Below are positions 6,878 to 48,171 of a DNA stretch of 64,000 nt, piece by piece; positions within the stretch are counted from its first letter, which is position 1; each line of letters starts with the position of its first letter. The position numbers and the translations under genes were made by a program. The stretch lies in the NCBI GenBank assembly GCA_035504595.1, contig DATJRQ010000018.1, positions 5,204-69,203 on the forward strand. The letters are read 5' to 3'. The notes below the pieces were generated by a model. The model did no database searches, was not told where the DNA came from, and was given only the letters and a program-made list of their open reading frames with translations. The stretch comes from Thermoplasmata archaeon (GTDB lineage: Archaea > Thermoplasmatota > Thermoplasmata > Lutacidiplasmatales > UBA184).

Positions 6878-9800
6878 CTACGATTCTTGCCAGGGTTCCT
6901 CGGTCGCCGGAGGAGTCTCCTTCACCGGAGGGGTGTACGGGGTCGGAGGAGAGGAAGGCGGTTTGCTCCGAGAGCGACCCGCGGCGAACAACAGCACCGC
7001 GGCCACGGCCGCCCCCACGAGGATTCCCAGGACGAGGGCTTCGTCGAAGCTCGTTCCGAACGTCGAAGCGTTCGAACTCGAGGTCACCGTCAGATGATAC
7101 GTCGCGTTCCACTCCGCCCCGACCTTGTCCTCAATGAACAGCGTCACATTGTACGTGCCGGCGTTCGCGAAGGCGTGAGAGCTTTCGACGCCGTATCCGT
7201 AGGACCCGTCACCGAATCCCCAGACGATCGTGTACGGAGCCGTTCCTCCCGAGATCGACGTGGTGAAGTCGAGGGCAGTGCCCGCAGTTACGCTCGTGCC
7301 CGTGGGGAGCGCGGGACTCGTCGGGCCCGTCGCGACCTGGAATGTCGCGGCGAGAGCCGCGTTCACTGTGACCGTCGTGTAGTTGCTGACCGGTTCCCCT
7401 GCCGCGTCGGTGTAGTGCACCGTTGCAAAGTACGTCCCCGCGGTCGAGTAGGTGTGGTGCACTGTCGTCCCATTCGCCGTGGCGCCGTCTCCGAACGTCC
7501 AGTAGGACGTCCCCGGACTTACTCCCCCGGAAGCGAGGGTAGCAAAGGAAACTGGAATGCCCACGTCGGTGACGTTGGAGGGAGAAGCAGCCACCGCGAC
7601 CGTCGGAAGCGGCTCGACTGTGACCTGGCTGGTGGCGCTGGAAACTCCGCCGCCCGCATCTTTCGTGATGACAGTGAGAAGATACATGCCCGGGGCAGCG
7701 TACACGTGGGACGTGTTTGCGCCCCATGCAGTTGCCCCGTCGCCGAAGGCCCAGCTGTAATTGAATGGCCCCGTACCGCCGGTGACCGAGGCGGTGGCGT
7801 TCAACGTAGCCCCCAGATCTATCGCGGCGGATCCCCCTCCGTTGAGCTCGACCTGGACGGCCAGTGCGGGGTTGACCGAGAGGACGGTCGATGACTGAGT
7901 GGTGTATCCGAGCAAATCTTCAATCGTCGCGGAGATCGTGTAGGTTGCCGCGGATACAACTTTACAGTTGATAGTGGTCGCGTCCTGGCTGACGCACCCC
8001 GTCGGGAGACCGCTGTAGCTGATCGTCGACGGGCCCGCACCGCCCACGAATCCCAGCAGCACCGAGGTGGAGGCGCCGACGTCCACGGGGTTGGGGGTGG
8101 CGGCCAAGAAGGTGATCCGCGGCGGACTCGCGATGATGCTGATTGTGCCGGAAATGAAGTTGGTGACCCAGATCTCGCTGGAACCTTGTGAGTTGCTGCC
8201 CGGGAAGTTCACCGGGGTCGAGTCAATCGGCAATTGCCCGGCGGGGAAGGTCGTGTACGATACCTGGCTCGCTGCTACGGACGACCCATCAATGACTGTG
8301 ATGTTGCCCGGCCAGGGTGGTCCAGAACTCCCGTTCGATGCTACGTAGAGGAACTCTCGGGACGGGTCATACACAATTGACCAGGCGACCACGTGAGGCG
8401 CAATCGGAATCGGACCGGCAACGATACTGCGATTCCCGGGGTTGACAATCCATACGGCTTCGCCGAGCGCGTAGATCTTGTGATCTGCCGAGTCATAAGC
8501 CACCGAGAGCAAGCCGGGAATCGTTGAAATCGGCGCGCCGATGATGCTCCCGTTCGCCCCATTGACAGCGACCAGGGTTGGCGCCGCTGGGTCGGACCGA
8601 TTGACCACAAACAGCGTGTCAGACTCGTTGTCCAGCGCGACCCCCTGGAGGTTCACCGTGCCCGCGGCGATTCTGGTCTGGAGTTGGAGTGTCAGACTCG
8701 GCATGTCAAGGGCATAGAGCCCCGTGATCTTGTTCAGATCCCAGAGTAAGCCGCTCTGCGGGTCGACAATCAGCTGAGTGTTGTTGCCCGCCAAATCTGG
8801 TCCGGTGTTTTCCGAAATGATGCCGCCCGTCTGAGCGTCGACGGCAAGAACTCCGCCCGTGAAGCCAATGTAGATTGTGCCCGTCGCGGGGTCGTCGGCG
8901 AGAGAATTTGGTGTCCCGGGCACAGTCAGAGGGGCGCGGACAGTTTGGAACGTCGTTGCATTCAGCACCGATACTGCATGGCTTGCCCAATCTGCGACGA
9001 ACACGTACCCCGAACCAGGGTCGTACGCAAGAGTCGCGGCCTCTGCGCCCAGATTCGGTGAGAGCTGAACCACGCTCCGTGTCGAGATGTTGGCAACGGT
9101 GATTGTCCGATTCGTGTTGCTCCACACGTAGACAAGCCCGTTTGTTGGATCGAGAGTGAGACGATCCGGAGGCAGCGTCACGTTCAAGGCGATCGGCGTA
9201 ACGAGCCCGGCCCTTGCTTGTACAAGCGAGAGATGAAGGGCAGTTCCGTTCACTGACACGAATTCTGAACCATTCAAACTCGAGATCACAGACGAAACGT
9301 TGAGACCAACCGATGATGTTCCCTCCACAACCTCGGTGCTCGCGTCGTATAGGTTTAGGAGGGTGCTACTAGGTGTCGCGATGGCCAGTAGATTGGTCGA
9401 CGTCGAGTACGCAAGTGCACTTGGAGAAGAAAACAGTCGTATAGGGGGGCTTTCAACGACGAAGTTTTTTGTGACGTTCACTGGGGTGACGTTGTAAGCA
9501 CCCGCGTACACCCCGGAGTTTGCCACGAACACTTCCCCAATCGTCGGTGCGTCCACCAATGCGATAGGAGAAATCCCTACGTGCGGAACCGACTGCAGTA
9601 GCTGGCCGGTTGCGCCATCTATTATTGACAGGTTTCCGGAAGCGGTGTTTGCTACGACCAGATCTTGGGATACCGGGTCGTAGAGAATGTCGTGCGGATC
9701 GCCTCCAACCGGAATCGGTGACCCTACCGTAGTGCCCGTGATCAGACTGTAAGCTACGACCTGGTTCGTCAGTGGTAGGGTCGCGTACAGGTAGCCGTTG

Positions 9801-10294
9801 AGCGGGTCGTACGCGATCGAGCTGGCGTTCGCGAGCTGGGGGTCCATTTGGGTCGAGTTGCTCGCGGGCGAGTAGATCAGCGCCGGGGCGTTCGGCGGCG
9901 CGGGAATGTGAGCTGTCGTGATCGGGAATTCCGGAATCCAGAGCTGGTCGGTCACGGGGTCGACGGTTGCGTACCCGCTCGCGTCCCAAAGCCAAACCAT
10001 GCTCGGAAAGTTGCCGGGCGTTGACCCGTCGTAGTTCACAAAGGCCGTCTGAACGACCGAGCCAGCCGAACTCGGTGAGAAAGTGAGCGGGCGGTCGGGT
10101 TGCATGGGCCGCAACGACGCGGAGACCGGAGCAGACGACGCCGCTGAGACGAGCGTGTCGGACTTTTCCGGCGCAGTTCGAGCCGAAGTGAGCGAAGCCG
10201 CCGCCACTGCGGCCACCGAGAGGGCCGCCACGGCGACCGTCAAGAGAAGGAGGAGGACTCGGGTCGGCCGATTTGAATGCGTCGCCAGCGTCAC
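6878..10294 (-). CDS. Large cell-surface protein: signal peptide, YVTN-type beta-propeller repeats, three or more PKD domains, C-terminal TM anchor
   Basis: N-terminal hydrophobic signal; repeated 'YDPxxGxxYV(A/V)N' propeller-blade motifs; three 'W(A/T)FGDG..(Y/H)xYxxxGxY' PKD signatures; C-terminal TM helix plus a Pro/Thr-rich tail; many N-x-S/T sequons. Confidence 0.75.
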   Translation of the reverse strand: MTLATHSNRPTRVLLLLLTVAVAALSVAAVAAASLTSARTAPEKSDTLVSAASSAPVSASLRPMQPDRPLTFSPSSAGSVVQTAFVNYDGSTPGNFPSMVWLWDASGYATVDPVTDQLWIPEFPITTAHIPAPPNAPALIYSPASNSTQMDPQLANASSIAYDPLNGYLYATLPLTNQVVAYSLITGTTVGSPIPVGGDPHDILYDPVSQDLVVANTASGNLSIIDGATGQLLQSVPHVGISPIALVDAPTIGEVFVANSGVYAGAYNVTPVNVTKNFVVESPPIRLFSSPSALAYSTSTNLLAIATPSSTLLNLYDASTEVVEGTSSVGLNVSSVISSLNGSEFVSVNGTALHLSLVQARAGLVTPIALNVTLPPDRLTLDPTNGLVYVWSNTNRTITVANISTRSVVQLSPNLGAEAATLAYDPGSGYVFVADWASHAVSVLNATTFQTVRAPLTVPGTPNSLADDPATGTIYIGFTGGVLAVDAQTGGIISENTGPDLAGNNTQLIVDPQSGLLWDLNKITGLYALDMPSLTLQLQTRIAAGTVNLQGVALDNESDTLFVVNRSDPAAPTLVAVNGANGSIIGAPISTIPGLLSVAYDSADHKIYALGEAVWIVNPGNRSIVAGPIPIAPHVVAWSIVYDPSREFLYVASNGSSGPPWPGNITVIDGSSVAASQVSYTTFPAGQLPIDSTPVNFPGSNSQGSSEIWVTNFISGTISIIASPPRITFLAATPNPVDVGASTSVLLGFVGGAGPSTISYSGLPTGCVSQDATTINCKVVSAATYTISATIEDLLGYTTQSSTVLSVNPALAVQVELNGGGSAAIDLGATLNATASVTGGTGPFNYSWAFGDGATAWGANTSHVYAAPGMYLLTVITKDAGGGVSSATSQVTVEPLPTVAVAASPSNVTDVGIPVSFATLASGGVSPGTSYWTFGDGATANGTTVHHTYSTAGTYFATVHYTDAAGEPVSNYTTVTVNAALAATFQVATGPTSPALPTGTSVTAGTALDFTTSISGGTAPYTIVWGFGDGSYGYGVESSHAFANAGTYNVTLFIEDKVGAEWNATYHLTVTSSSNASTFGTSFDEALVLGILVGAAVAAVLLFAAGRSRSKPPSSPPTPYTPPVKETPPATEEPWQES

Positions 10295-35309: not shown

Positions 35310-37634
35310 CTACGCGCCCTTCCAGGCGCGTCCCTCCTTCCGGCGAAGGTCGATCCCGCGCAGCACGCGGTCGGGCGTGATGGGAAGCTCGGTGAACCGC
35401 GCCCCGACGGCGTCGTAGAGAGCGTTACCGACCGCCGGCAGCGTCGCGATCAGCGGCCCCTCGCCGGCCTCCTTGGCGCCGAACGGCCCGTCCGGGTCGT
35501 CCTCGCCGACGAGCAGGATTTCCACCTCGGGCATCTGCTCCGGCGTGGGGATCTTGTATTCGAGCAGGGACGGGTTGAACAGCCGTCCGCCGCGGTAGTT
35601 CATCGACTCGCCCATCACCTGGCCCAGGCCCATGTGGATCGACCCTTCGATCTGACCCTCCACCGCGAGCCGATTCAGCGCGCGTCCGCAGTCGAACGCA
35701 GCCCAGATCTTCTCGACGTGGTACTCTCCGGTCTCGACGTCCACGTCGACCTGGGCGACGTACGCGGCGAACGAGTAAGCGGGGGCCGTCCCGGCGCGCG
35801 CCCCCTTGAACGTGCCCCCCTTCGGTTTCGAGTCGTACGCGCCGCTCGCCGTCAGCGCGCCGACCGATTCCATCGCCTTGTGGAGGGCGTGCAGGAAGGA
35901 GACGCCGACCTCCGGCTGGTCCCGGACCTGGAAACGCTCGTGGGCGGTCTCCAGGGTCTCCACGGGCCGCTCCAGCAGTTCCGCCGCTGCCATCAGGAGC
36001 TGCGCGCGCAGCCGCAGCGCCGCCGAGCGCGCCGCGTTCCCCATCATGAACGTCACCCGACTCGAGTAGGAGCCGAGGTCGATCGGGCTCACGTCGGAAT
36101 CGACCCGTTGCACGTGGACCCGTTCGAGGTCCACGCCGAGCACTTCCGCGACGATCGCGGCGAGCAGGGTGTTCGAACCCTGGCCGATGTCCGCCTGCAT
36201 CGAGTGGACGGCGATCCCCCCGTCCATGTCGACCTTCAGGTGAACGGTCGATTGCGGCATCTTCGGCGTGAAATGGATCGGGCTGTTCGACCCCGAAATG
36301 TAGAACCCGCAACCGAGCCCGACGCCCTTTCCAAAGGGGAGCCGGCGGAACTTCGCGTCCCAGCCGCTCTTCTCGCGCGCGGCTTGAAGGCACTTTAGGA
36401 ACGACGTCGAGGTGATCAGGAACTCGTTGACCGTGGTCGTGTTCGGCTCGATCGCGTTCTGCGCCCGGAGGTCGAACGGGTCGCGTCCCATGCGCTCGGC
36501 GAGGATGTCGAGCGCGGTCTCGACGGAGTAGCGGATGTTGGTGCCTCCGTGCGCTCGCATCGCGCCCGACGGTGGACGGTTGGTGTAGACGCGCCGGCCC
36601 TTGTACCGGAAATTCGGTACAAGGTACGGACCCATGGAGAGAACGCCGTTGTAGTACGTGGTGACGGTACCGAACGAGCTCCACGCCCCGCCGTCGATGA
36701 GTGCCTCGATGTCGTACGCCAAGATCCGACCGCTCGCGTCCACGGCGATCCGAACGTCGTTCTGCGTCGGATGTCGTCCGTGGTTCGTGTAGAAAACGTC
36801 CTCCCGGTCGAAGAGGATCTTGACGGGCCGACCGGTCTCGATCGCGAGCGCCGCGCAGACGATCTCGTGGGGGAGCGGGTCGGACTTGCCGCCGAACCCG
36901 CCGCCGACCTCCGGCTTGATGACCCGGATCCGGTGCATGGGGATCCCGAGCACTTCGGACAGGGAACGGTGCAGGTAGTGCGGTACCTGCGTCGCGCTCC
37001 AGACCGTCAGGCGCCCGTCGGGCGTCGCTTCCGCGATCGTCGCCATCGGCTCTGTGAACGCGTGGGTGACGCCGGCGTAGTTGCCGCGCACGCGGACCGT
37101 CTCCGCGGCCCGCGCGAAGGCCCCGTCAACGTCGCCGAAATGCTGGACGACCTCTTTCTGGATGTTCGTGCCGTTGAGACCGCGCGTGTGGATCGGCTCC
37201 TCGACCCGGTTGAGGCCCATCCGCGGGTCGGCGTACTCCGGAAGAATCTCCACGTCGCAGCGGACCAACGCAAGCGCGGCCTCCGCGGTGACCTCGTCCT
37301 GGGCGGCCACGGCGGCGATGATGTCGCCGTTGTACCGCGCCTTGTCCACCGCGATCGCCGTCTCGTCGTGCGTGATCGGAAGCACGCCGAATGCGGTCGG
37401 GTACTTCTCGCCCGTCAGCACAGCGAACACGCCGGGGAGTTCTCGGGCCCGGCTCGTGTCGATGGACTTCAACCGAGCGTGCGGCCAGGGGCTCCTCAGC
37501 AGCCGGGCCACCAGCATCCCGGGCCGCCGGATGTCATCGGTGTACTCCGCGCGGCCCGTCACCTTCAGGGGGCCCTCGACGTACGGGATGCGCCCGCCTA
37601 GGAGCCGGTATTCCGGCGGCGTGCTCGACGCCAT
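35310..37634 (-). CDS. Molybdenum hydroxylase large (molybdopterin-binding) subunit, CoxL/XdhA-like
   Basis: Aldehyde oxidase/xanthine dehydrogenase a/b hammerhead and MoCo-binding domains. Start set to the internal ATG that overlaps the small-subunit stop (TGATG). Confidence 0.8.
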   Translation of the reverse strand: MASSTPPEYRLLGGRIPYVEGPLKVTGRAEYTDDIRRPGMLVARLLRSPWPHARLKSIDTSRARELPGVFAVLTGEKYPTAFGVLPITHDETAIAVDKARYNGDIIAAVAAQDEVTAEAALALVRCDVEILPEYADPRMGLNRVEEPIHTRGLNGTNIQKEVVQHFGDVDGAFARAAETVRVRGNYAGVTHAFTEPMATIAEATPDGRLTVWSATQVPHYLHRSLSEVLGIPMHRIRVIKPEVGGGFGGKSDPLPHEIVCAALAIETGRPVKILFDREDVFYTNHGRHPTQNDVRIAVDASGRILAYDIEALIDGGAWSSFGTVTTYYNGVLSMGPYLVPNFRYKGRRVYTNRPPSGAMRAHGGTNIRYSVETALDILAERMGRDPFDLRAQNAIEPNTTTVNEFLITSTSFLKCLQAAREKSGWDAKFRRLPFGKGVGLGCGFYISGSNSPIHFTPKMPQSTVHLKVDMDGGIAVHSMQADIGQGSNTLLAAIVAEVLGVDLERVHVQRVDSDVSPIDLGSYSSRVTFMMGNAARSAALRLRAQLLMAAAELLERPVETLETAHERFQVRDQPEVGVSFLHALHKAMESVGALTASGAYDSKPKGGTFKGARAGTAPAYSFAAYVAQVDVDVETGEYHVEKIWAAFDCGRALNRLAVEGQIEGSIHMGLGQVMGESMNYRGGRLFNPSLLEYKIPTPEQMPEVEILLVGEDDPDGPFGAKEAGEGPLIATLPAVGNALYDAVGARFTELPITPDRVLRGIDLRRKEGRAWKGA

Positions 37635-38107
37635 CAGGCGCTCCCGCGGGCCGCCGCCTCGATCGCTTCGATGATCTTGGTGTAACCGGTACACCGGCAG
37701 AGGTTCCCCGAGATCGCCCGGACGATCTCGTCACGGCTCGGATGCGGATGGTCCCGCAGCAGCGCCGTCGCCGTGAGCACGAACCCCGGGGTGCAGAATC
37801 CGCACTGTGTCGCGCCGGTACGAACGAACTCCGCCTGCACCGGCGAGAGCCCGTGCGCCGGCGAGGCTCCTTCGATCGTGGTCACCTCGCGTCCCTCGAC
37901 CAGCCGGGCAAGCGAGAGGCAGCTCAGGGTCGGTCGACCGTCGAGGAGGACCGTACAGCACCCGCATGTGCCGAGGTCGCATCCGCGTTTCGTCCCGGTG
38001 AGCTCGAGGTCCTCGCGAAGCAGGTCGAGGAGGATGCGCGCGTCCTCGCACGGCGTGTCCACGGGGTGGCCGTTCAGCCGGAACCTAAGGGGGGCCGCGG
38101 ACGACAT
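37634..38107 (-). CDS. Molybdenum hydroxylase [2Fe-2S] small subunit (CoxS-like)
   Basis: Two Cys clusters, C..C..GxCGxC and CGFCTPG...C.C (plant-type and second 2Fe-2S). Confidence 0.85.
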   Translation of the reverse strand: MSSAAPLRFRLNGHPVDTPCEDARILLDLLREDLELTGTKRGCDLGTCGCCTVLLDGRPTLSCLSLARLVEGREVTTIEGASPAHGLSPVQAEFVRTGATQCGFCTPGFVLTATALLRDHPHPSRDEIVRAISGNLCRCTGYTKIIEAIEAAARGSA

Positions 38108-38930
38108 CCTCCTCCGTAACGGCCACCCGCCGGGGGGCCCCGCGACGACTCTCCCGCTTGGGATGCATCTCGTGCACCAATTCGGCCGCGATCGCGACGG
38201 CGATCTCGGGGGGGCTCTCGGCGCCGATCTCGATCCCGACGGGCGAGTTCACGCGACCGAGGGCCGCGCGCGAGACCCCGCGCCCGCGCAACGCGGCGAA
38301 CATATGTTCGCGCTTCGCGGCGCTGGCGATCAGTCCGATCCGATTCGGGAACTCGGCGATCGACCGATCGAGGACCTCGAGGTCCTTCTTCGCGTCGTAT
38401 CCCATCACGAACAGGTGGGTGAACGCGGACGGCTCGAACACCTTCCACAGGTCAGCGGGCGCGACCACTTCACGTCGGTCCGCCGTCGCGAACCGATCGA
38501 CGCCGACCCATTCGGCCCGGTCGTCGGCGACGCTGTAGTCGTACTCGAGGGTCGGCAGGATCGCGGCGAGTGCGTGACTGACGTGACCGCCCCCCCAGAG
38601 GAGGACGTTCGGCCGCGCGGGCACGTATTCCACCGCGATATCGACCGATCCCCCGCACAGGCTCGGGAGGCCCCCGTCCTTCCACGCCTGGAGGTCGAAG
38701 TGGTGGAGGTCGCCGGTCCGGGACCGGAACGCCCGGGCCGAGAGTTCCCGGACCCGCTCCTCGAGCGCCGCGCCGCCGATGGTACCGACGGACGAACCGT
38801 CGGAGCGGACGATCATCGACGCGCCGAGTTTCCCCGGCACCGACCCTGACGTCTTCACGACGGTCGCCCGGACGAACGCCTCGTGTGCCTCCAGGAGGCG
38901 CAACGCTTCCCGGAGCAGCTTGCGGTCCAT
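38085..38930 (-). CDS. XdhC/CoxI-family molybdenum cofactor insertion chaperone
   Basis: N-terminal XdhC_CoxI domain + C-terminal Rossmann-like domain. Confidence 0.75.
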   Translation of the reverse strand: MDRKLLREALRLLEAHEAFVRATVVKTSGSVPGKLGASMIVRSDGSSVGTIGGAALEERVRELSARAFRSRTGDLHHFDLQAWKDGGLPSLCGGSVDIAVEYVPARPNVLLWGGGHVSHALAAILPTLEYDYSVADDRAEWVGVDRFATADRREVVAPADLWKVFEPSAFTHLFVMGYDAKKDLEVLDRSIAEFPNRIGLIASAAKREHMFAALRGRGVSRAALGRVNSPVGIEIGAESPPEIAVAIAAELVHEMHPKRESRRGAPRRVAVTEEDVVRGPP

Positions 38931-39538
38931 CAGTCCTCCCGACGCGCGAGCCAGGCGTCGTATGAGTTCCGATACTCCTCGGGCGTGTCGATGCCGGCGA
39001 GGACGCCGGGGTCGTCGACCGCGACCCGTCGCACCTGAGGTCCCAATTCGGGCATGAGGGCGCGAATGGGGGCATCGGGCCGGAGCTCGAGGACGTCCGC
39101 TCGGACCCTATCCTTCCACAGGATCGGGTGTCCTCCCTGACCCTGATGCGTCGGCACGAACCACAGCCCGAGCTCGTCCGTCGAGCGCGCGACCTGGAGG
39201 AGCTCAAGGGTGCGCTCCGAAACGAACGGGTGGTCGACCGGCCACAACAGGACGTCCGAGCCGGCGGGCACCGCGCGCAACCCGGACTGGACCGACGCGG
39301 TGCGACCTTCGTACCACTGTTCCGAGTCGACCAGGCGCACGTCCACCTGCCGCAACGCCTCCGCGATCGGCCGGTGGTGGGGGCCGACGACGACGAGCAC
39401 CGGGTCGAACCCCTGCTCGAGGCTCATCTCCGCCATTCGCTGGATCGCCGTGCGCTCCCCCGCGGCGACCAGCGCTTTCGGGTACCCCCCAAACCGCGTG
39501 GAGGCTCCGCCGCTCAGAAGGATCGCCGAGGTGTTCAT
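38930..39538 (-). CDS. MobA-like molybdenum cofactor cytidylyl/guanylyl-transferase (MocA-like)
   Basis: AILLSGGASTRFGG nucleotidyltransferase motif; start reset to an internal Met. Confidence 0.7.
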   Translation of the reverse strand: MNTSAILLSGGASTRFGGYPKALVAAGERTAIQRMAEMSLEQGFDPVLVVVGPHHRPIAEALRQVDVRLVDSEQWYEGRTASVQSGLRAVPAGSDVLLWPVDHPFVSERTLELLQVARSTDELGLWFVPTHQGQGGHPILWKDRVRADVLELRPDAPIRALMPELGPQVRRVAVDDPGVLAGIDTPEEYRNSYDAWLARRED

Positions 39539-39707
39539 CGCACCGCACAGGGATGCGTGCGCATCCGTTGCACCTGCCACGCCGGGCCGGTTAGTTAAGC
39601 CACCGCCCTACCGCGCCCCGACCGGGGTGTCGGAGGTGCCGACCCCAACTCCAAAACGCGTCGGACGCCCTCGCGCGGGTCGCCACCGAGGAGCGCGCTG
39701 GCTCGCA

Positions 39708-42016: not shown

Positions 42017-42231
42017 GCGGACGCCGCGGACCCCGGTTCCGTTTATAACCGTTGTCCCGCGCCGACCGGGCTTCGTTCTTCGGCGGTCGGAGGCCCCCGG
42101 TTCCGTCGGAAGCAAGATATACCCTCACCGAGGTAAACATACGTCGTGGGCTTGGTCAGGTTCGATTCGGAGGGTCTGTCGGCCTGACCGGTCGGTGCTC
42201 TACCGACCGTAGCTCGACTTTTGGCGCAACC

Positions 42232-43737
42232 ATGGCTGTGGACTCCGGGACCGCACCCGTCCTCCTGCCGACCCGAGAGCGGAACGTCCTGCTGCTCGAC
42301 CTTTCGAAGAGCATGCTCGCTCCGCTGCCCGACGCCGGTCCGGGGCAGCCGGACCGGCAGAAGATCGAGGTCGCCCGGACGGCCGTGTTCCGGATCCTTC
42401 AGGACGCCGCAACGTCCGGGGCTCTCTTCGGGCTGGTCACGTTCACCGAAACGGTCCGGGTCGCGGTCCCGCTCACCGACATCCACCGGGAGAACCTCCC
42501 GTACATCGAGAACCTGATCTCGCTGCTCACGCCCAGCGGCCGCTCGGCGATCTGGGACGCGCTCGCGGTCGGCTCCGACCTGCTCCGGATGGGCACTCAG
42601 GGGGTGCACGGCAACCTCGTGCTCGTCACGGACGGCTGGGACAACGCCTCGACCCGGTTCGACGTCCAGCTCCCGAACGGACCTCGGATCGCGCAGGGCC
42701 GGATCGACCTGGTGCCGTACATGCTCCCGCCCGGCTCCCACCTCACCCTCAAGGTGATCGGGATCGGCAGCGGCGAGGAGAAGGACAAGGGGGTCGACGC
42801 GGCCCGGATGAACTACCTCATCTCGCAGATGGAGGCCCGGGCGGCGCGCGCGGGGCTCCCCGCGGCGTTCAGCTTCCAGGAGGTCACGACCGGCTCCCAG
42901 CTGTTCGCGCAGATGGTGAACGCGTTTCTCGATGTCGGCTACGAGGACGACCGACCGATCGAGGAGCTCCACCCGGAGGAACTCGCGCGCCACGCGGCGA
43001 ACGCCGCGCGGGCCCTGAAGGAGCCGCAGCAGCACGCGACCGTGTCGCGCATCCACGCTCCGCCCACGCCGAACAACGGCAACGCCGCTTCGTACTCGGA
43101 GGCGCCCGACCTTGAGGTCGATGTGCTGAAGACGACGGGCGGGACCACGCCGGCGTACCTGAAAGAACGGTACGGACCGCTCGGCGAGGTCGTCGAGGCG
43201 TACATGAACGGCCAGCCCGACGCCGCGTTGAAGCTGCTCGCGAAGGCGTCGGCCGTCCTCCCGCCGGTCACCCGGTTGTACTGGGAGGCGCGCATCCAAT
43301 TCTCGAACCACGCCGTCGTCGAGGCCGCGCGCGCACTCCTCCAGGCCTGGACCGAGGCCGAGCGTCTGCCCCCGTCGGTGCAGCCGAAGATCCTGCGTCG
43401 TCTCGCGCTGCTCCAAGCGCGGATGCAGAACGACAAGGAGACCGAGACGCTGGTGCGGTTCATTGACGACACGGAGAACCGGCTCGCCGGCACCGATGCG
43501 AAGACCCGGGAGCGGCTGATGGCCCTGTTCGCGAAGCTCATGGAACTCCGGGGCACCTACCAGCTCACGAAGATCGCCTCGACCGGGGACCTGCAGGACG
43601 CGGCGGCCAAGCACGAGGAGGCGGTCGACCAGGTGTTCGGGCTTCTTCAGGACGCGAGGCTTGATTTATCCGCAAATGGACCGGCCGTGGAAGGGGCGCT
43701 CGATTTCATCGAGATCTGTCTCGCGGAAATGAGGTAG
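42232..43737 (+). CDS. von Willebrand factor A (vWA) domain protein with a helical C-terminal domain (501 aa)
   Basis: MIDAS DLSKSM (DxSxS) ...T...D motif and vWA fold N-terminally; TPR-like/helical C-terminal ~250 aa. Start reset to an internal Met, because the upstream part of the ORF overlaps the S17e promoter region. Confidence 0.7.
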   Translation: MAVDSGTAPVLLPTRERNVLLLDLSKSMLAPLPDAGPGQPDRQKIEVARTAVFRILQDAATSGALFGLVTFTETVRVAVPLTDIHRENLPYIENLISLLTPSGRSAIWDALAVGSDLLRMGTQGVHGNLVLVTDGWDNASTRFDVQLPNGPRIAQGRIDLVPYMLPPGSHLTLKVIGIGSGEEKDKGVDAARMNYLISQMEARAARAGLPAAFSFQEVTTGSQLFAQMVNAFLDVGYEDDRPIEELHPEELARHAANAARALKEPQQHATVSRIHAPPTPNNGNAASYSEAPDLEVDVLKTTGGTTPAYLKERYGPLGEVVEAYMNGQPDAALKLLAKASAVLPPVTRLYWEARIQFSNHAVVEAARALLQAWTEAERLPPSVQPKILRRLALLQARMQNDKETETLVRFIDDTENRLAGTDAKTRERLMALFAKLMELRGTYQLTKIASTGDLQDAAAKHEEAVDQVFGLLQDARLDLSANGPAVEGALDFIEICLAEMR

Positions 43738-43746
43738 TTCGACACG

Positions 43747-44913
43747 ATGCCGGCGGTCAAGGTCACCACGAAGACCCGCCGTGCGCCCGGTTCCAAACCG
43801 AAGCCGAAGGCGGCCGCGGTCGACACCGCCCGCATCGCCGTGATCGGGATCCCCGCTTCGGGAAAGACGACGTACTTCCGATTCCTCTCGGGCCACTTCG
43901 GGCTGAATCTGCCGATCCTGTACATCCCCGCGCGAGCGGACGGGGGCCAGATGCCGCTCTACGGGGACCTCGAGAACGACGTCGCGCTGGAGGAGACGAC
44001 GTACGAGACGACCGACCCGACCGACCCGGAAGGGAGCCTCGAGACGACGACGCGGTACTACGTCAACCGTCCGATGGAGGACCGGCGCAAGCTGTGGGTC
44101 GAGCTGTCCGCCGGCCGCGACGAGCAGGGGGTCCTCACGAAGTACCCGCTCCCGACGAAGTTCAACCAGTTCGTCGAGATGAAGCTCCGCTTCCGCTACG
44201 GCGCGGCGTCCGGCGGCGAATCCCGGCCGCTCGAGCTTAACACGATCGACGAGGCCGGCGGTATCATCGCCGACTACTTCACCTACGACCGGCTCTGGGT
44301 CGAGTCGGCGGACGACGAGGTATCCGAGAAGAACTGCCGGGTCATTCCCCACTTCGACTCCTGGCGGGCGGACCGACGGGACCTCTGGCGGCACGGGCTC
44401 ACCTTGCTCGGTCGGTTCGTCCACGGAGCCGACGCGATCATTCTGCTCCTCTCGCCCGCGCTGCCGTCCCTCCGCGACCAGGCCCAGCAGGTCAACCTCG
44501 CGCGCGGAGTGTTCAGGTATGCGAAGTCCCACAACATCCCCCTCGTCATCGCGATCTCGAAAGCGGACAAGCTCAAGGAGTTCTACGGCGAGGTCGAGCA
44601 GTCGGTCCGGGACCGCACGTTCCGCAGCGCGTTCGACCCGGTCGACTTCCTCCTGCGTCGCGACGGCGCCGGTATGGGGACCATCCTCGTCGCCCAGGAG
44701 GGCCAGGGTCTGTCGGTGAAGGACGACGTCTTCCTTGTGTCGAGCGCGGTCTCGACCGGGGAAGGACATCCGCTGTTCATCGGCGAGGGGGGCCAGGAGG
44801 CTCCGAGTGCCGGCACCCAGACGATGGGGGTCCCCGTGATGGTGAACACGACGCTGCCGCTCGCGCGGGCCTGCGAGCGGATCCTTGAGCGTCGCGCGTC
44901 GAAAGGTGGGTGA
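43747..44913 (+). CDS. Atypical P-loop GTPase (G1 GIPASGKTT, G3 DEAGG, G4 SKAD, G5 SSA) with a ~125-aa insertion between G1 and G3
   Basis: The motifs occur in canonical order. The SKAD G4 variant resembles septin/GIMAP-type 'AKAD'. The start lies 10 nt after the vWA stop, and the stop overlaps the next ATG (ATGA). Confidence 0.6.
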   Translation: MPAVKVTTKTRRAPGSKPKPKAAAVDTARIAVIGIPASGKTTYFRFLSGHFGLNLPILYIPARADGGQMPLYGDLENDVALEETTYETTDPTDPEGSLETTTRYYVNRPMEDRRKLWVELSAGRDEQGVLTKYPLPTKFNQFVEMKLRFRYGAASGGESRPLELNTIDEAGGIIADYFTYDRLWVESADDEVSEKNCRVIPHFDSWRADRRDLWRHGLTLLGRFVHGADAIILLLSPALPSLRDQAQQVNLARGVFRYAKSHNIPLVIAISKADKLKEFYGEVEQSVRDRTFRSAFDPVDFLLRRDGAGMGTILVAQEGQGLSVKDDVFLVSSAVSTGEGHPLFIGEGGQEAPSAGTQTMGVPVMVNTTLPLARACERILERRASKGG

Positions 44914-47900
44914 TGGCTACCGTTGAGGTCCGGCCCACAGGAAGCTTCTCGCCGGTAGCGGTCGTCTGGTGCCGGCAGGTCGATAACGAGGCGGAAAGCC
45001 CCGGCTACACGACGATCCCCGAGGAGTTTCCCGGCCGTCGGGAGACGCTCGAGACGATCCGGCTCGTCGGGAACCTGACGGTCAACGTCGCCGACACCCA
45101 CGATTACTGGGACCCCGACCCGGCGCAGACGCTCTCGTACTACCCGAACCTGTTCCTCTATCCGGCCGGTAACGGCCGCTACACCTGCATCGGCCGGATG
45201 TTCCTCTCGACCGAGGACCGTCCGCGCCTCGGGATGAAGACCCTCGTCCTGGACACCCCGCAGCTGGTCGCTTCCGGCGACTTTGGCGGCGCCGTGCTCC
45301 AGGCGTGGGCGTCGATGGGCGGTCGCCCCGGCGGAGATTCCCGACGGGGGGAACCCGACCCGGCAGTGTACCAGGCGGTCGGTGAAGGGTTCCTCTTCCA
45401 CCGGGGCACCACGGAGCCGGTCGTCATCGTCGCCGCCGAACAGTGGGAAAGCTCGATCGACGCGATGACCGAGCTGGTCCGAATGCTTCCCACGTCCCTC
45501 ACCGCGCTGGGGGCGTTCCTCGCGTTCCCGTACTTCCTTCCCGAAGGGAAGGTCAACCTCCACGAGTTCGCGGAGCAGATCCCGCTCGCCCTCGCCCTCA
45601 TGCGGGTCCCCGAGCGCGAGGCGCAGGGGGACCGCCACGCGAAGCGCATCCAGAGCTGGGAGTCGGCCCCGGTGTCGTTGCGCGACCTGACCAAGCCGGC
45701 GAACCCACGAGCGAAGGACCCCCTCCCGCTCGTGCTGCAGTACGTCCGCGACCATTCCGACGAGAAGATCCTCGAGGTGAGTCGCCGGGTCGACCTCGTC
45801 GAGGCGACCCGCCTGCGCGCCCACATGGAGGACTCGGACCACCAGGGCGGCAAGGACCGCCGCAAGGAGATGTGGCGGATCGGCACCGGCATGGAGAGCG
45901 CCGCGCTGCTGCTCGCCCGCCCCCGGGGGCGCCAGATTCCGATGACGGGAGAGGCGGCCCGGCGCGCGAACCAGTATCTGCAGGCGCACCCCGCGACCGA
46001 CTCGATCGTGGTGGCGCCGGCGAGCCGCCCGCTGCCGTCCGCCCCGACCAGCGATCCCGTGGCGGTGGCCGGGGCGAACCAGGTCCCACCCTGGCTGCAG
46101 CGCCCGCCCGAAGTGACCCTTCCCGCGCCCGGACCCGTCGCGGTCCCGGTGTCCGTGAGCGACGACCCGTCCACCCTCCCGACCGGGGTCGTGGCGCCCG
46201 CGCCGCTGCCGGCCCCGGACGCGAGGGCGCCGGCGCCGCCGCCGATCGCCGGGATCTCGATGGCCTCCCCCGCGCTCTCCGCGGAAGCGGAGCATCGGTT
46301 GCGCACCTACGTGGACCAGCGCTTCCAGGAGATCACCGCCCTCCTCCCCCCGCCCCCCGACCCGAAGGCCCTCGAGACGCGACTCGCCGCGGCCTCCCTG
46401 GACTCGGAGGCCCGAGCGAGCGCGAACCTCGACCGGCGGATGCGGGAACAGGCCGAGGCCCAGAGCCGGGCGCTGACGCAACTGCAGGCCGACCTGTCGG
46501 CCCGACTGAACACCCTCGAAGGGCGGCCCGTCCTCGTCCCGACCGCGATCCCCGACGAGGTCGCGCGCTTCCAGCGCGAAACGATCGACCCGAAGCTCGC
46601 CGACCAGTACGAGAAGGCGCGGCTCGCGATCAAGGGGTCCGCGGACGCGGTCACCGCCCAGCTCCGCAGCGAGATCGCGGACGCGACGGAGGAGATGCGT
46701 CTGCGCGCGGCGAAGTCGGAGGAAGAGCTCCGGGTCGCGCTCATCGCGCAGATGGACCTCGAGATCCGCGAGGCGAAGGAGCAAGGCTCGACGCTCCGGG
46801 AAGAGATCGAGGGCCGCGTCCAGGCGATCCTGAAGGAACGGCTGACCGAGCTGGACGCGCGCCGCACGAAGGAGGCTCGGGAATCCGAGCAGCGTCTCGC
46901 GATCCTTGTGGACGGCCGCGTGAAAGACCTCGAGACCCGCGTCATCTCCTCGCTCGGAGCGCAACGGGACGCGCTCCAGCGCTCCTCCCAGGACCAGATC
47001 GCCCAGGTCGAGCGGCGGCTCGAACTCGCCGACCAGGCGCGGCTCGCCTCCCTCACCGAATCGCAGAACACGGCGCTCGCCGGTCTCCAGGTCCGCCTCC
47101 AGTCGTACTTCGACCAGCGGATGCGGGAGGACCAGGAACGGGAGCGCGAGAAGTACGTCGAGCTGCTGGCCCGCCTGAAAACCGAGGTCGACCAGGGGCT
47201 CGCCCACACGGTCGATTCCGCCGAGTTCGACCGCGCGGTCCAGACCCGGACCTTGCGGACCGTCGAGGCGCTCCACCTCGCCGACCAGAAGACGCTCGAC
47301 CTCAAGGTCGCGGACGCCGCGGCCCGGTTGAAATCCGAGCAGGGCAGTTCGATCGCCCGGCTCGCCCAGGTGGAGACGCAATTGCGCGATCGCGAGACGG
47401 CGATCGCGAACGTCGAGAAGAACGTGCGCACCGACCTCGAGGAGCTCGACCGTCGCCTCCAGGTGATGGCCGACCGGATGGTGCCCCTCGTCCGGAACAC
47501 CTGGCTCAAGGTCGAGGACCTGCAGAAGGGCGGGAGCCTGTCGGAACAGGCCGAGACCCGGATGAAGGAGTTCCGCCGGGAGTTCTCGCGCGAGCTCCGC
47601 CGCATCGAGGGCGAGATGCTCGAGCAGACGACCGAACTGCGGGACCGGATGGAAGGCGCGATCGCGCACCAGGGACGGATCTGGCTCAACTTCGTGCGGC
47701 AAATGGCCGACGCGGACGACGACGAGCCGCGCGTGATGGACCCTGCGTCCCGCTCGCTGCGCCGGGTCGCGCACGCGGCGGCGAACAGTCCGCTGCCCGA
47801 CCCTCGCGTCCCGCCGACCCGGGCCCGACCGACGTTCCAGCCGTTCGACGAGGTGCGGCGGGACGACCCGGTGAACCCACTCGACCCCCGCCCGGACCCG

Positions 47901-47942
47901 GGCGAAGTGGCCGAGCGTCGGCGCGCCCAGCGGACGAGCTAG
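44910..47942 (+). CDS. 1010-aa protein: ~330-aa globular N-terminal domain, Pro-rich linker, ~450-aa coiled coil, and a basic/Pro-rich C-terminus
   Basis: Heptad-rich Glu/Arg/Leu/Ala/Gln segment ~res 460-900 (SMC-like in composition but without ATPase heads). Coupled to the GTPase gene. The 1063-aa minus ORF and 850-aa plus ORF overlapping it are shadows. Confidence 0.6.
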   Translation: MMATVEVRPTGSFSPVAVVWCRQVDNEAESPGYTTIPEEFPGRRETLETIRLVGNLTVNVADTHDYWDPDPAQTLSYYPNLFLYPAGNGRYTCIGRMFLSTEDRPRLGMKTLVLDTPQLVASGDFGGAVLQAWASMGGRPGGDSRRGEPDPAVYQAVGEGFLFHRGTTEPVVIVAAEQWESSIDAMTELVRMLPTSLTALGAFLAFPYFLPEGKVNLHEFAEQIPLALALMRVPEREAQGDRHAKRIQSWESAPVSLRDLTKPANPRAKDPLPLVLQYVRDHSDEKILEVSRRVDLVEATRLRAHMEDSDHQGGKDRRKEMWRIGTGMESAALLLARPRGRQIPMTGEAARRANQYLQAHPATDSIVVAPASRPLPSAPTSDPVAVAGANQVPPWLQRPPEVTLPAPGPVAVPVSVSDDPSTLPTGVVAPAPLPAPDARAPAPPPIAGISMASPALSAEAEHRLRTYVDQRFQEITALLPPPPDPKALETRLAAASLDSEARASANLDRRMREQAEAQSRALTQLQADLSARLNTLEGRPVLVPTAIPDEVARFQRETIDPKLADQYEKARLAIKGSADAVTAQLRSEIADATEEMRLRAAKSEEELRVALIAQMDLEIREAKEQGSTLREEIEGRVQAILKERLTELDARRTKEARESEQRLAILVDGRVKDLETRVISSLGAQRDALQRSSQDQIAQVERRLELADQARLASLTESQNTALAGLQVRLQSYFDQRMREDQEREREKYVELLARLKTEVDQGLAHTVDSAEFDRAVQTRTLRTVEALHLADQKTLDLKVADAAARLKSEQGSSIARLAQVETQLRDRETAIANVEKNVRTDLEELDRRLQVMADRMVPLVRNTWLKVEDLQKGGSLSEQAETRMKEFRREFSRELRRIEGEMLEQTTELRDRMEGAIAHQGRIWLNFVRQMADADDDEPRVMDPASRSLRRVAHAAANSPLPDPRVPPTRARPTFQPFDEVRRDDPVNPLDPRPDPGEVAERRRAQRTS

Positions 47943-47991: not shown

Positions 47992-48171
47992 GTGACCGAG
48001 GACCACCGTCACTGCAAGGTGTGCGGCAAGCCCGTGGGGCCCGGCAAGGACACCTGCAGCACCGCCTGCCGCGAGAAACGCGAGGCGGTCGCCCGCACGA
48101 AGAAGATGTACACCTACGTCCTGTACGGGATGATCGCGCTCCTCCTGATCCTGCTCGTCGTCCGGCTGTAG
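47992..48171 (+). CDS. Small zinc-ribbon + single-TM protein (59 aa), DUF2116-like
   Basis: Manual translation VTEDHRHCKVCGKPVGPGKDTCSTACREKREAVARTKKMYTYVLYGMIALLLILLVVRL; GTG start; below the ORF-track cutoff. Confidence 0.35.
   Translation: MTEDHRHCKVCGKPVGPGKDTCSTACREKREAVARTKKMYTYVLYGMIALLLILLVVRL

Follow-up and report, generated by a model that had tools for sequence, protein, structure and literature searches.

Layout of the locus

Three co-oriented genes, here called g1, g2 and g3, span positions 42232–47942 on the forward strand of the window, the whole 64,000-nucleotide stretch of DNA that we analyzed. They encode a cytosolic vWA/MIDAS protein of 501 aa (g1, 42232–43737), a GTPase of 388 aa (g2, 43747–44913), and a protein of 1010 aa counted from a GTG at 44910 or of 1009 aa from the ATG at 44913, which is the start chosen by NCBI (g3, to 47942). 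The g1 stop codon (TAG, 43735–43737) and the g2 ATG are separated by 9 nt. The g2–g3 junction reads GTGATG, which gives a 4-nt GTGA overlap with the GTG start and a 1-nt overlap with the ATG start. The initial annotation had placed all three reading frames correctly, but it counted a 10-nt gap and described the overlap as ATGA, which is not literally what is there. Its view of the genes as a tightly coupled unit is borne out by these junctions and by other genomes. Gene order and strand are kept in 80 of 80 related loci, the g1–g2 gap is 7–19 nt in nearly all of them, and g2 and g3 overlap (−4 or −1) in 56. Because order, strand, and a short gap followed by an overlap recur across these 80 loci, the arrangement is not a product of chance.

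Within the triad, a conserved promoter-like block is found upstream of g1 only (42105–42150, forward strand). The window reads CCGTCGGAAGCAAGATATACCC-N6-CCGAGGTAAACAT...CGTG, and the consensus across related loci is CGGAAGCCA-CAAATACCC-N6-CCGAGGTAAAyAT..CGTGC. In 34 of 39 related loci the spacing between this block and the g1 ATG is the same, and the sequence on either side of it cannot be aligned. Judging by its sequence, it may comprise a BRE/TATA, an A/T-rich proximal element and an initiator, in which case g1 would have a GC-rich 5′ leader of about 85 nt (42146–42231). RNAalifold found no conserved structure in this leader, and an Rfam search of the window returned no family. We rejected a 13-codon upstream ORF: its “start” is the predicted initiator, and neither its length nor its sequence is conserved beyond close relatives.

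The vWA/MIDAS protein

The identification of the first protein as a vWA protein with a MIDAS motif holds. Residues 19–145 (42286–42666) score above the Pfam gathering cutoff for both VWA_2 (37.5 bits against 27; 3.9e-9) and VWA (28.5 bits against 23.8; 2.1e-6). The DxSxS motif lies at residues 23–27 (42298–42312), and the MIDAS residues D23, S25, S27, S105 and D134 are invariant in 31 homologs, a lineage with 42% identity included. The C-terminal ~270 aa are conserved and helical-looking. Pfam gave no significant family for this domain, and SLATT_1 and TPR_19 matches to it were dismissed as weak (E 0.015–0.36). We found no TM segment in g1 (maximum KD19 = 1.31) and no match to its profile in the PDB. 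A metal-chelatase (CobT/ChlD-like) reading was rejected, since TIGR02442, at 21.8 bits, falls short of its cutoff of 779 and an AAA+ partner is lacking.

A divergent GTPase

After a conserved basic N-terminal peptide (residues 1–20), g2 carries G1 (G34-IPAS-G39-K40-T41; residues 34–42, 43846–43872), a putative G2 (T137, 44155–44157), G3 (DEAGG with D168 and G171; residues 168–172, 44248–44262), G4 (SKAD with S271 and D274; residues 271–274, 44557–44568), and G5 (SSA with S333 and A334; residues 332–334, 44740–44748). Each of GIPASGKT, DEAG, SKAD and SSA is either invariant or conserved at 90% or more, with G4 having Ser in place of N/T. Gly172, at the position equivalent to Gln61 of Ras, is nearly invariant, and the catalytic Gln is absent. 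The insertion between G1 and G3 noted in the initial annotation is real (residues ~55–130, 43909–44136), but it is smaller than the ~125 aa given there: G1 and G3 are 126 residues apart, and a Ras-like core would itself account for about 40 of them, which leaves a net insertion of about 85 aa. Pfam found no significant family in it.

The motif set is thus complete, as had been noted, and yet the protein falls in no named family. A search of 1.84 billion representatives gave 14 matches, all to its own family. The best curated-family scores were 15.1 bits for GTP_EFTU (cutoff 26.5) and 16.4 for TIGR00231 (cutoff 42.5), and none of Ras, Arf, Roc, MMR_HSR1, GTP_EFTU or small_GTP (Pfam/NCBIfam) exceeded its cutoff. 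A place in a housekeeping family of the Era, EngA (Der), EngB or MnmE type is not indicated either: scores against these equivalogs are far below cutoffs (12.6 bits for TIGR03594 Der/EngA, cutoff 306.7), and no accessory domain such as KH was found. Sequence and profile searches against the PDB gave no match.

Against a five-sequence Ras-superfamily profile, hhalign gave g2 a probability of 80%, which rose to 95.7% when the insertion was excised; the default alignment covered the P-loop alone, and g2 lines up with Ras-type cores only after that excision. Comparisons with single sequences, for which the Ras-family sequences were entered by hand, gave 75% for Era, 40% for Arf, 14% for Ras and 1.5–1.8% for MglA, do not separate Ras-like from Era-like cores, and assign no subfamily. 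The SEPT2 G domain reached only 7–8%. An AF2 model from a shallow alignment, a weak indicator at a pLDDT of 39, matched the folds of MglA, Rab, Rho and Sar. With the septin probability so low and the fold matches elsewhere, the septin/GIMAP-like reading first given to SKAD is not upheld. On balance, we take g2 to be a small G protein that probably has a Ras-type (TRAFAC) core; it carries three insertions and lacks a catalytic Gln following DxxG.

A predicted longin-like head on a helical rod

The g3 protein begins with a globular head (residues ~17–350) that is 80–93% conserved. An AF2 model of the head (pLDDT 83.7) resolves it into a longin lobe (residues 17–135, 44958–45314), an alpha/beta lobe (residues 151–260, 45360–45689) and a helical lobe (residues 274–358, 45729–45983). 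A Pro-rich linker follows (residues 359–460, 45984–46289; residues 351–460 are 23% Pro), then a helical rod rich in R/A/L/E (residues 461–935, 46290–47714) with a conserved C-terminal module inside it (residues ~837–933), and a Pro/Arg/Asp tail (residues 936–1010, 47715–47939) that contains a DPxNPLDP motif and ends in poly-Arg. The ~330-aa head and the long helical region that had been described initially are both confirmed. The coiled coil is, from the sequence, at most plausible, because the hydrophobic periodicity of the rod is ~3.6–3.7, as opposed to 3.5 for a canonical heptad coiled coil. Rod length varies among related loci, and a diagonal-score analysis against shuffles found no internal repeats in the rod. 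Walker motifs are absent from g3 and neither SMC_N nor Rad50 matches it; with a longin-like head and a Pro/Arg tail, it is not an SMC/Rad50 protein.

The suggestion that the head might have a roadblock/longin/DENN-like fold is supported by the predicted model and by its structure matches. The first lobe follows the beta-beta-alpha-beta-beta-beta-alpha(-alpha) fold of the longin/roadblock superfamily, and the best structural matches of the head model are longin/roadblock GTPase regulators. Foldseek ranked C9orf72 first, with an alignment that takes in the whole model (E 4.8e-3), and DENND1A and DENND10 both match 172 residues, a length that spans two lobes. The second lobe matches helicase/ORC/NB-ARC cores, which agrees with published work that treats the core of DENN as a P-loop-like alpha/beta domain in minimal form (PMC3521125). 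At the sequence level, none of the methods used connects the head with longin, DENN or roadblock families: Pfam gave no family for residues 1–360 up to E 10, and a profile search of the head against the PDB gave no match.

Lineages only ~40% identical retain the head motifs WxRQVDNEAESP, DYWDPDP, NLFLYP and GRMFLSTEDRPRLGxKT. The first is part of an invariant block, W20-x-RQVDNEAESP31(G), at the beta1–beta2 loop of the longin lobe. GAP-type longins (FLCN/SMCR8/NPRL2/C9orf72) have a GP motif before beta2, beside an Arg finger (PMC12290439). The g3 block reads S-P-G rather than G-P, and its Gly is Trp in one lineage. The candidate arginines R22, R96, R104 and R106 are invariant.

Conservation, distribution, and genomic context

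The triad is restricted to one lineage. We matched it in 161 GTDB species, and each of the three proteins has almost the same number of homologs (346, 354 and 335), with all 346 g1 homologs in Thermoplasmata. It appears to be single-copy. Across 58 loci, median identity was 82% for the GTPase, 73% for the vWA protein and 71% for the g3 head, compared with 84% for S17e, 77% for S19e, 67% for eIF6 and 58–60% for PPAT/M50/THUMP. Conservation across the order is 74–94%, and within the triad invariance is highest in the longin lobe and the GTPase. On these comparisons, the triad is best regarded as of housekeeping grade, with a GTPase about as conserved as ribosomal proteins.

In nearly all main-clade loci the triad adjoins an S19e–PDCD5–L31e–eIF6–S17e block, with transcription divergent from S17e; synteny with this block and with PPAT/M50 is fixed in the 80 loci. 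A ~60% GC lineage has the triad away from ribosomal genes but keeps the DUF2116–PPAT–M50 side. The GC content of the triad equals that of its neighbors. These observations agree with the early impression that nothing obvious places the locus on a mobile island, and they are best explained by a chromosomal, non-mobile, vertically inherited, lineage-specific operon.

Two further proteins were considered and rejected. DUF2116 (47992–48171), considered as a fourth, membrane-anchoring member, stays with PPAT despite a 1.3–4 kb insertion after g3 and is absent downstream of g3 in several loci. In the ~60% GC lineage, a 185-aa coiled-coil protein that might have been a split-off piece of the rod has no similarity to it. 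PADLOC reported no defense system at the locus; its sole match, ZorA2 on the g3 rod (E 2.9e-5), we judged to reflect a composition like that of a coiled-coil tail.

A proposed GTPase switch and its alternatives

We lean toward reading the locus as a lineage-specific housekeeping GTPase switch, in which the cognate regulator is a longin head on a variable-length rod and the vWA protein is a MIDAS adaptor. The g3 head would bind g2 directly and set its nucleotide state as a GAP and/or a GEF, with the beta1–beta2 loop (W20-x-RQVDNEAESP31) and the beta4–beta5 hairpin (FLSTEDRPRLG) as candidate catalytic or contact elements. The linker and rod would separate the head from the conserved C-terminal module and the basic tail, which may dimerize the protein and anchor it at a cellular site. 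Soluble g1, with its intact MIDAS, could act as an adaptor or effector arm, a metal-dependent clamp for an acidic motif, which might be supplied by the g3 tail (DPxNPLDP), by g2, or by a client.

The likeness of the head to longin/DENN proteins could instead be a generic resemblance among small alpha/beta folds. The head would then be a ligand-sensing domain or scaffold (PAS/GAF/IclR-effector-like) in a complex of the three proteins with a structural or sensory role, with the GTPase under some other control. We think this explanation unlikely.

A cytoskeletal or membrane-remodeling machine, in which g2 assembles in a nucleotide-dependent manner (like septins, dynamins or GIMAPs) with g1 and g3 as structural partners, for example in cell shape or division in a lineage related to the wall-less Thermoplasmata, would account for the extreme, actin/tubulin-like conservation and for the long helical rod of variable length. 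The SKAD variant of G4 and the large g2 insertions, which could mediate oligomerization, point the same way. However, the septin comparison was poor, the fold matches of the low-confidence g2 model are monomeric switch GTPases and not dynamin or septin, the triad has no TM or membrane-binding domain, and longin partners are characteristic of switch GTPases. We regard such a machine as quite unlikely.

Position and conservation invite another explanation, namely that g2 is a GTPase associated with ribosomes or translation and that the operon belongs functionally to the adjacent ribosomal block. The triad stands beside that block in nearly all main-clade loci and is conserved at the level of ribosomal proteins, Era was the best single-sequence hhalign match, and g2 begins with a conserved, basic peptide. 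Yet transcription of the operon diverges from that of S17e and a promoter-like motif of its own precedes it, it lies elsewhere in the ~60% GC lineage, the proteins have no KH, S1 or other RNA-binding domain, and g2 falls far short of the cutoffs of the Era, Der and EngB models; this role is improbable.

An NTPase-centered conflict or defense system, an early suggestion for this locus, is already largely refuted and has very little chance of being correct: although the three types of protein (vWA, GTPase, and a “GTPase-associated” multidomain protein encoded downstream) are a shared domain vocabulary, and 10 of 31 members show a weak, P-loop-only DO-GTPase2 match (E 0.04–0.16), the DO-GTPase/GAP1 and vWA–MoxR ternary systems (Kaur et al. 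2020, PMC7159879) are mobile and patchy with variable effectors, whereas the triad is fixed in housekeeping synteny with neighbor-like GC, ribosomal-protein-level conservation, no PADLOC system, and no MoxR, GAP1-N/M/C, GASH, FNIII, effector domain or EADs.

Comparison with longin and roadblock systems

Longin/DENN regulators and small GTPases underlie membrane traffic and nutrient signaling in eukaryotes. Outside eukaryotes, we know of DENN-type proteins reported only from Asgard archaea. Lutacidiplasmatales/TMEG archaea are abundant, uncultured inhabitants of soil and peat, and in searches of the literature on TagF/longin, Lutacidiplasmatales GTPases and Thermoplasmata longins we found no earlier description of the triad.

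The switch that we favor has precedents in known GTPase plus roadblock/longin operons, and the triad is best seen as a variation on that theme. One precedent is MglA/MglB of bacteria and archaea, a Ras-like GTPase with a roadblock GAP, whose operons are described as mobile and widespread (PMC3521125), whereas the triad is fixed in one lineage. MglB is a stand-alone roadblock dimer of ~130–160 aa, whereas in the triad the proposed regulator is a longin lobe, one of three lobes in the head of a 1000-aa rod protein. MglA retains the catalytic Gln where g2 has Gly, and the two are hardly similar by hhalign. The other is an Asgard operon encoding a LAMTOR1-like roadblock protein, a Rab-like GTPase and a DENN-domain protein (Liu et al., 10.1101/2020.10.19.343400). 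Both it and the triad are archaeal operons that pair a small Ras-superfamily GTPase with a longin/DENN-type module (by predicted fold in the triad), and both are predicted GEF/GAP–GTPase pairs. Unlike the Asgard operon, the triad is in Thermoplasmatota, has no roadblock/LAMTOR gene, and adds a vWA/MIDAS protein. Its head is fused to ~650 aa of linker and rod and has no detectable similarity to Pfam DENN, uDENN, dDENN or longin, and its GTPase has large insertions and receives no Rab-like assignment from sequence methods.

The triad thus provides a fold-level longin/DENN counterpart, translationally coupled to a presumptive GTPase, in an archaeal phylum unrelated to Asgard, and such modules can evade all profile-based censuses of “eukaryotic signature proteins.” It points to an apparently essential cell-biological process in Lutacidiplasmatales/TMEG archaea, and it offers a three-protein system for testing how a longin head may control a Gln-less GTPase.

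It is doubtful, though worth taking seriously, that the g3 head is a true homolog of the eukaryotic/Asgard DENN/folliculin/C9orf72 module, regulating a divergent Ras-superfamily GTPase. If it is, a non-Asgard archaeal order runs an essential, eukaryote-looking module of GTPase, longin-DENN regulator, tether and vWA adaptor; DENN-type regulation either predates the Asgard–eukaryote lineage or was transferred laterally in ancient times; and a compact prokaryotic system becomes available for the study of longin-DENN modules. Eukaryotic longin-DENN proteins (C9orf72–SMCR8, folliculin–FNIP, NPRL2/3, DENND1) have no sequence homology to the head, in which neither the GP motif nor the Arg-finger position is demonstrably conserved, and they act as heterodimers on lysosomal or endosomal membranes, which the triad is not known to do. 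The likenesses are the predicted order of longin, P-loop-like alpha/beta and helical lobes, and the placement of the strongest g3 invariance at the longin beta1–beta2 loop, the region of the WD/GP catalytic pocket in eukaryotic GAP longins (PMC12290439).

Organization of the locus and proposed function

Three co-oriented plus-strand genes had been proposed in the initial annotation, and both the ORF listing and direct reading of the window support them: g1 (42232-43737) encodes a vWA protein, g2 (43747-44913) a GTPase, and g3 (44910/44913-47942, with two possible starts) a protein of ~1010 aa. The claimed tight linkage stands with small corrections. The g1–g2 gap is 9 nt by direct reading, not 10, and g2 and g3 do overlap, at a GTGATG junction rather than ATGA, by 4 nt (GTGA) or 1 nt depending on which g3 start codon is chosen. 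No TM-like segment was found in any of the three proteins. All are annotated as hypothetical in a Thermoplasmata archaeon MAG (100% identity), and MAGs with related loci include Candidatus Lutacidiplasmatales and Lutacidiplasma silvani. They belong to TMEG, an uncultured soil/peat group (GTDB order UBA184) with genomes of ~2.1 Mb and ~69% GC (PMC9287336).

We modestly favor reading this triad as a GTPase switch of housekeeping type, unrelated to defense, whose cognate regulator is of the longin type. The analysis shows the triad's anatomy, a predicted fold and an evolutionary pattern; binding, the direction of regulation, anchoring and a cellular role we infer as follows. The switch would be g2, and its cognate regulator would be the g3 longin head, docked via the invariant β1–β2 and β4–β5 loops. 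The g3 linker and rod would keep the head at a distance from the basic tail and a C-terminal module, both of which may dimerize or anchor g3. For its part, g1 may be an adaptor that engages an acidic motif in a MIDAS-dependent way.

The same logic is found in MglA/MglB, and the closest parallel is an Asgard operon that combines a LAMTOR1-like protein, a Rab-like GTPase and a DENN protein; in reporting it, the authors remarked that DENN was until then known from eukaryotes only (10.1101/2020.10.19.343400). The triad differs in its host phylum, its vWA partner, a head fused to a long rod, and a heavily inserted, Gln-less GTPase; no relationship is detectable by sequence. Literature searches found no earlier description of the family, in agreement with the original impression that it matched no named system.

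Predicted structure of g3

The g3 protein begins with a highly conserved head of ~350 aa, followed by a Pro-rich linker (110 aa), a helical region (~475 aa) and a Pro/Arg/Asp tail. A globular head and a long helical part had been described correctly. A coiled coil is plausible, but hydrophobic periodicity is ~3.6-3.7 rather than 3.5, leaving a heptad unproven. Because of this periodicity and the lack of internal sequence repeats in the helical region, we refer to the latter as a helical rod.

Searches of Pfam, NCBIfam and PADLOC, and of PDB by sequence or profile, assigned the g3 head, g2 and the C-terminal half of g1 to no family. AlphaFold2 modeled the head confidently from a 70-sequence alignment (pLDDT 83.7, pTM 0.87), with the order β-β-α-β-β-β-α-α predicted at residues 17-135, four β-α units at 151-260 and a helical bundle at 274-358. 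Of the roadblock/longin/DENN-like folds proposed for testing at this N-terminus, the predicted structure supports a longin fold and makes a DENN-type tripartite module plausible. The top Foldseek match to the entire head model was C9orf72, which was weak (E 4.8e-3, probability 0.54, TM 0.21). A generic fold resemblance, with no role in GTPase regulation, is an improbable explanation.

The vWA protein and the GTPase

The assignment of g1 as a vWA/MIDAS protein was upheld, since it scores above Pfam vWA thresholds and its MIDAS residues are invariant. The G1, G3, G4 and G5 motifs of g2 are likewise intact, with GIPASGKT, DEAGG, SKAD and SSA all invariant. An insertion between G1 and G3 is present, although ~125 aa is not its size: the whole G1–G3 spacing is 126 residues, ~85 above Ras.

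An exhaustive HMMER scan of 1.84 billion cluster representatives gave 14 matches to g2, all fragments or members of its own family; the sole full-length match was 60% identical. The AlphaFold2 model was poor (pLDDT 39) because every available homolog is more than 58% identical. Default profile–profile comparison with five Ras-superfamily sequences aligned the P-loop alone; those sequences were entered by hand, a caveat on the comparison. With a permissive alignment threshold, G1–G4 aligned to the Ras-superfamily profile at 80% probability, and excising residues 55-128 raised this to 95.7%, equating YPLPT137 with Ras YDPT35, DEAGG with DTAGQ and SKAD with NKCD. Single-sequence comparisons (Era 75%, Arf1 40%, Ran 27%, RagA 15%, Ras 14%, SEPT2 8%, MglA 2%) did not single out a GTPase subfamily, and the low SEPT2 value speaks against the septin/GIMAP-like reading first proposed. 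That g2 is a polymerizing cytoskeletal or remodeling GTPase strikes us as rather unlikely. An almost invariant Gly occupies the Ras Gln61-equivalent position; to judge by analogy from other GTPases without this Gln, a partner probably has to supply residues for efficient hydrolysis.

Conservation of the triad

Word-indexed searches found 346, 354 and 335 homologs of g1, g2 and g3, near-equal numbers that are consistent with a single copy of each per genome. A g2 relative was present in 161 species when one genome per GTDB species was scanned. Among 80 loci retrieved, the three genes keep identical order and strand wherever the contig permits; g1–g2 spacing is 7-19 nt in nearly all, and 56 have a -4 or -1 overlap between g2 and g3. 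Upstream lie S19e-PDCD5-L31e-eIF6, plus S17e transcribed divergently; downstream are DUF2116-PPAT-DUF5611-M50 protease and a convergent THUMP methyltransferase. In 58 complete loci, the GTPase has a median identity of 82% to its window counterpart, vWA 73% and the g3 head 71%; the comparison values in the same loci are 84% for S17e, 89% for L31e, 77% for S19e, 67% for eIF6 and 58-60% for PPAT/M50/THUMP. Constraint on the triad is thus of housekeeping grade, unlike the defense-island pattern.

The same triad occurs on two contigs of a deeper, ~60% GC lineage (L001 and L083), with 60% (GTPase), 42% (vWA) and ~40% (g3 head) identity to the window. Even so, the longin-lobe motifs WxRQVDNEAESP, DYWDPDP, NLFLYP and GRMFLSTEDRPRLGxKT are unaltered in it. 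There, DUF2116-PPAT-M50 follows the triad and no ribosomal genes precede it. A ribosome-associated g2 would suit the neighbors of the other loci, and we consider it unlikely. In the ~60% GC lineage g3 is only ~550 aa; it retains the head and, at the C-terminus, a helical module of ~100 aa that aligns to window g3 837-933. Because the long rod is absent from it, the invariant core of g3 consists of the head and this module, with the rod as a variable-length spacer that accounts for the ~940-1300 aa of g3 in the main clade.

Least probable is a conflict system, as initially offered among the options: the DO-GTPase/GAP1 and vWA-MoxR systems of Kaur et al. share domain vocabulary with the locus, but they are mobile, effector-rich and patchy (PMC7159879), and the triad, under housekeeping-grade constraint, is none of these. 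Its GC equals that of the surrounding sequence (~70% throughout the window), and the statement that it is not on a mobile island holds.

Two extra conserved genes lie directly upstream of vWA in the ~60% GC lineage (L001:6049-6985, L083:3734-4408). The first encodes an acidic 185-aa coiled-coil protein without similarity to the g3 rod, and the second is an 87-aa CPFC zinc-ribbon-like ORF overlapping the vWA start. One divergent MAG (GCA_027378385.1, DAIFBW010000059.1; L082:241-2324) has a TnpB (Cas12f1-like_TNB) gene directly upstream, a GTPase reduced to residues 239-387 and joined to unrelated N-terminal sequence, and an intact 650-aa g3 homolog; the vWA gene is absent from the contig. Either a mobile element has disrupted the operon here, or the assembly is chimeric.

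Transcription unit and flanking elements

Upstream of g1, a promoter-like block (42105-42150, +) carries a BRE/TATA-like CAAATACCC, GGTAAA and CGTG. Its consensus, CGGAAGCCA-CAAATACCC-N6-CCGAGGTAAAyAT..CGTGC, is strongly conserved: 34 of the 39 related loci have it, each time equally far from the g1 ATG, amid otherwise unalignable sequence. By spacing, the block fits a predicted archaeal BRE/TATA, proximal element and initiator, implying an ~85-nt operon leader, in which no conserved structure was detected. Just 5' of the g1 ATG, a 7-bp GC hairpin (CGGTCGG...CCGACCG) followed by TTTT (42179-42215, +) looks like a terminator or attenuator; its sequence is unconserved among relatives.

Next to 42017-42050, the true S17e start appears to be ATG 42016 (-; MGNIRQ...) rather than TTG 42115. 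A TTTATAA box at 42042-48, conserved in several loci, lies ~26-32 nt upstream of that ATG on the minus strand, which suggests a leaderless S17e mRNA.

An unlisted 59-aa ORF 49 nt after g3 (47992-48171, +) matches DUF2116 (Pfam 2.7e-13), a treble-clef zinc ribbon, and its C-terminal helix is hydrophobic. We excluded this ORF from the triad since it keeps with PPAT across loci: the start-to-start distance is constant (~190-215 nt) even with 1.3-4 kb inserted between DUF2116 and g3.

Other features of the window

A gene at 6878-10294 (-) coincides with the window's sole GC dip (0.59 vs ~0.70). Its 1138-aa product, probably a surface protein, contains three PKD domains as well as a region resembling a beta-propeller. 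At 37634-39580 (-), three overlapping genes resemble, by eye, a [2Fe-2S] CoxS-type subunit, an XdhC/CoxI-type maturation factor and a MobA-like nucleotidyltransferase, which together would form a molybdoenzyme maturation cluster.
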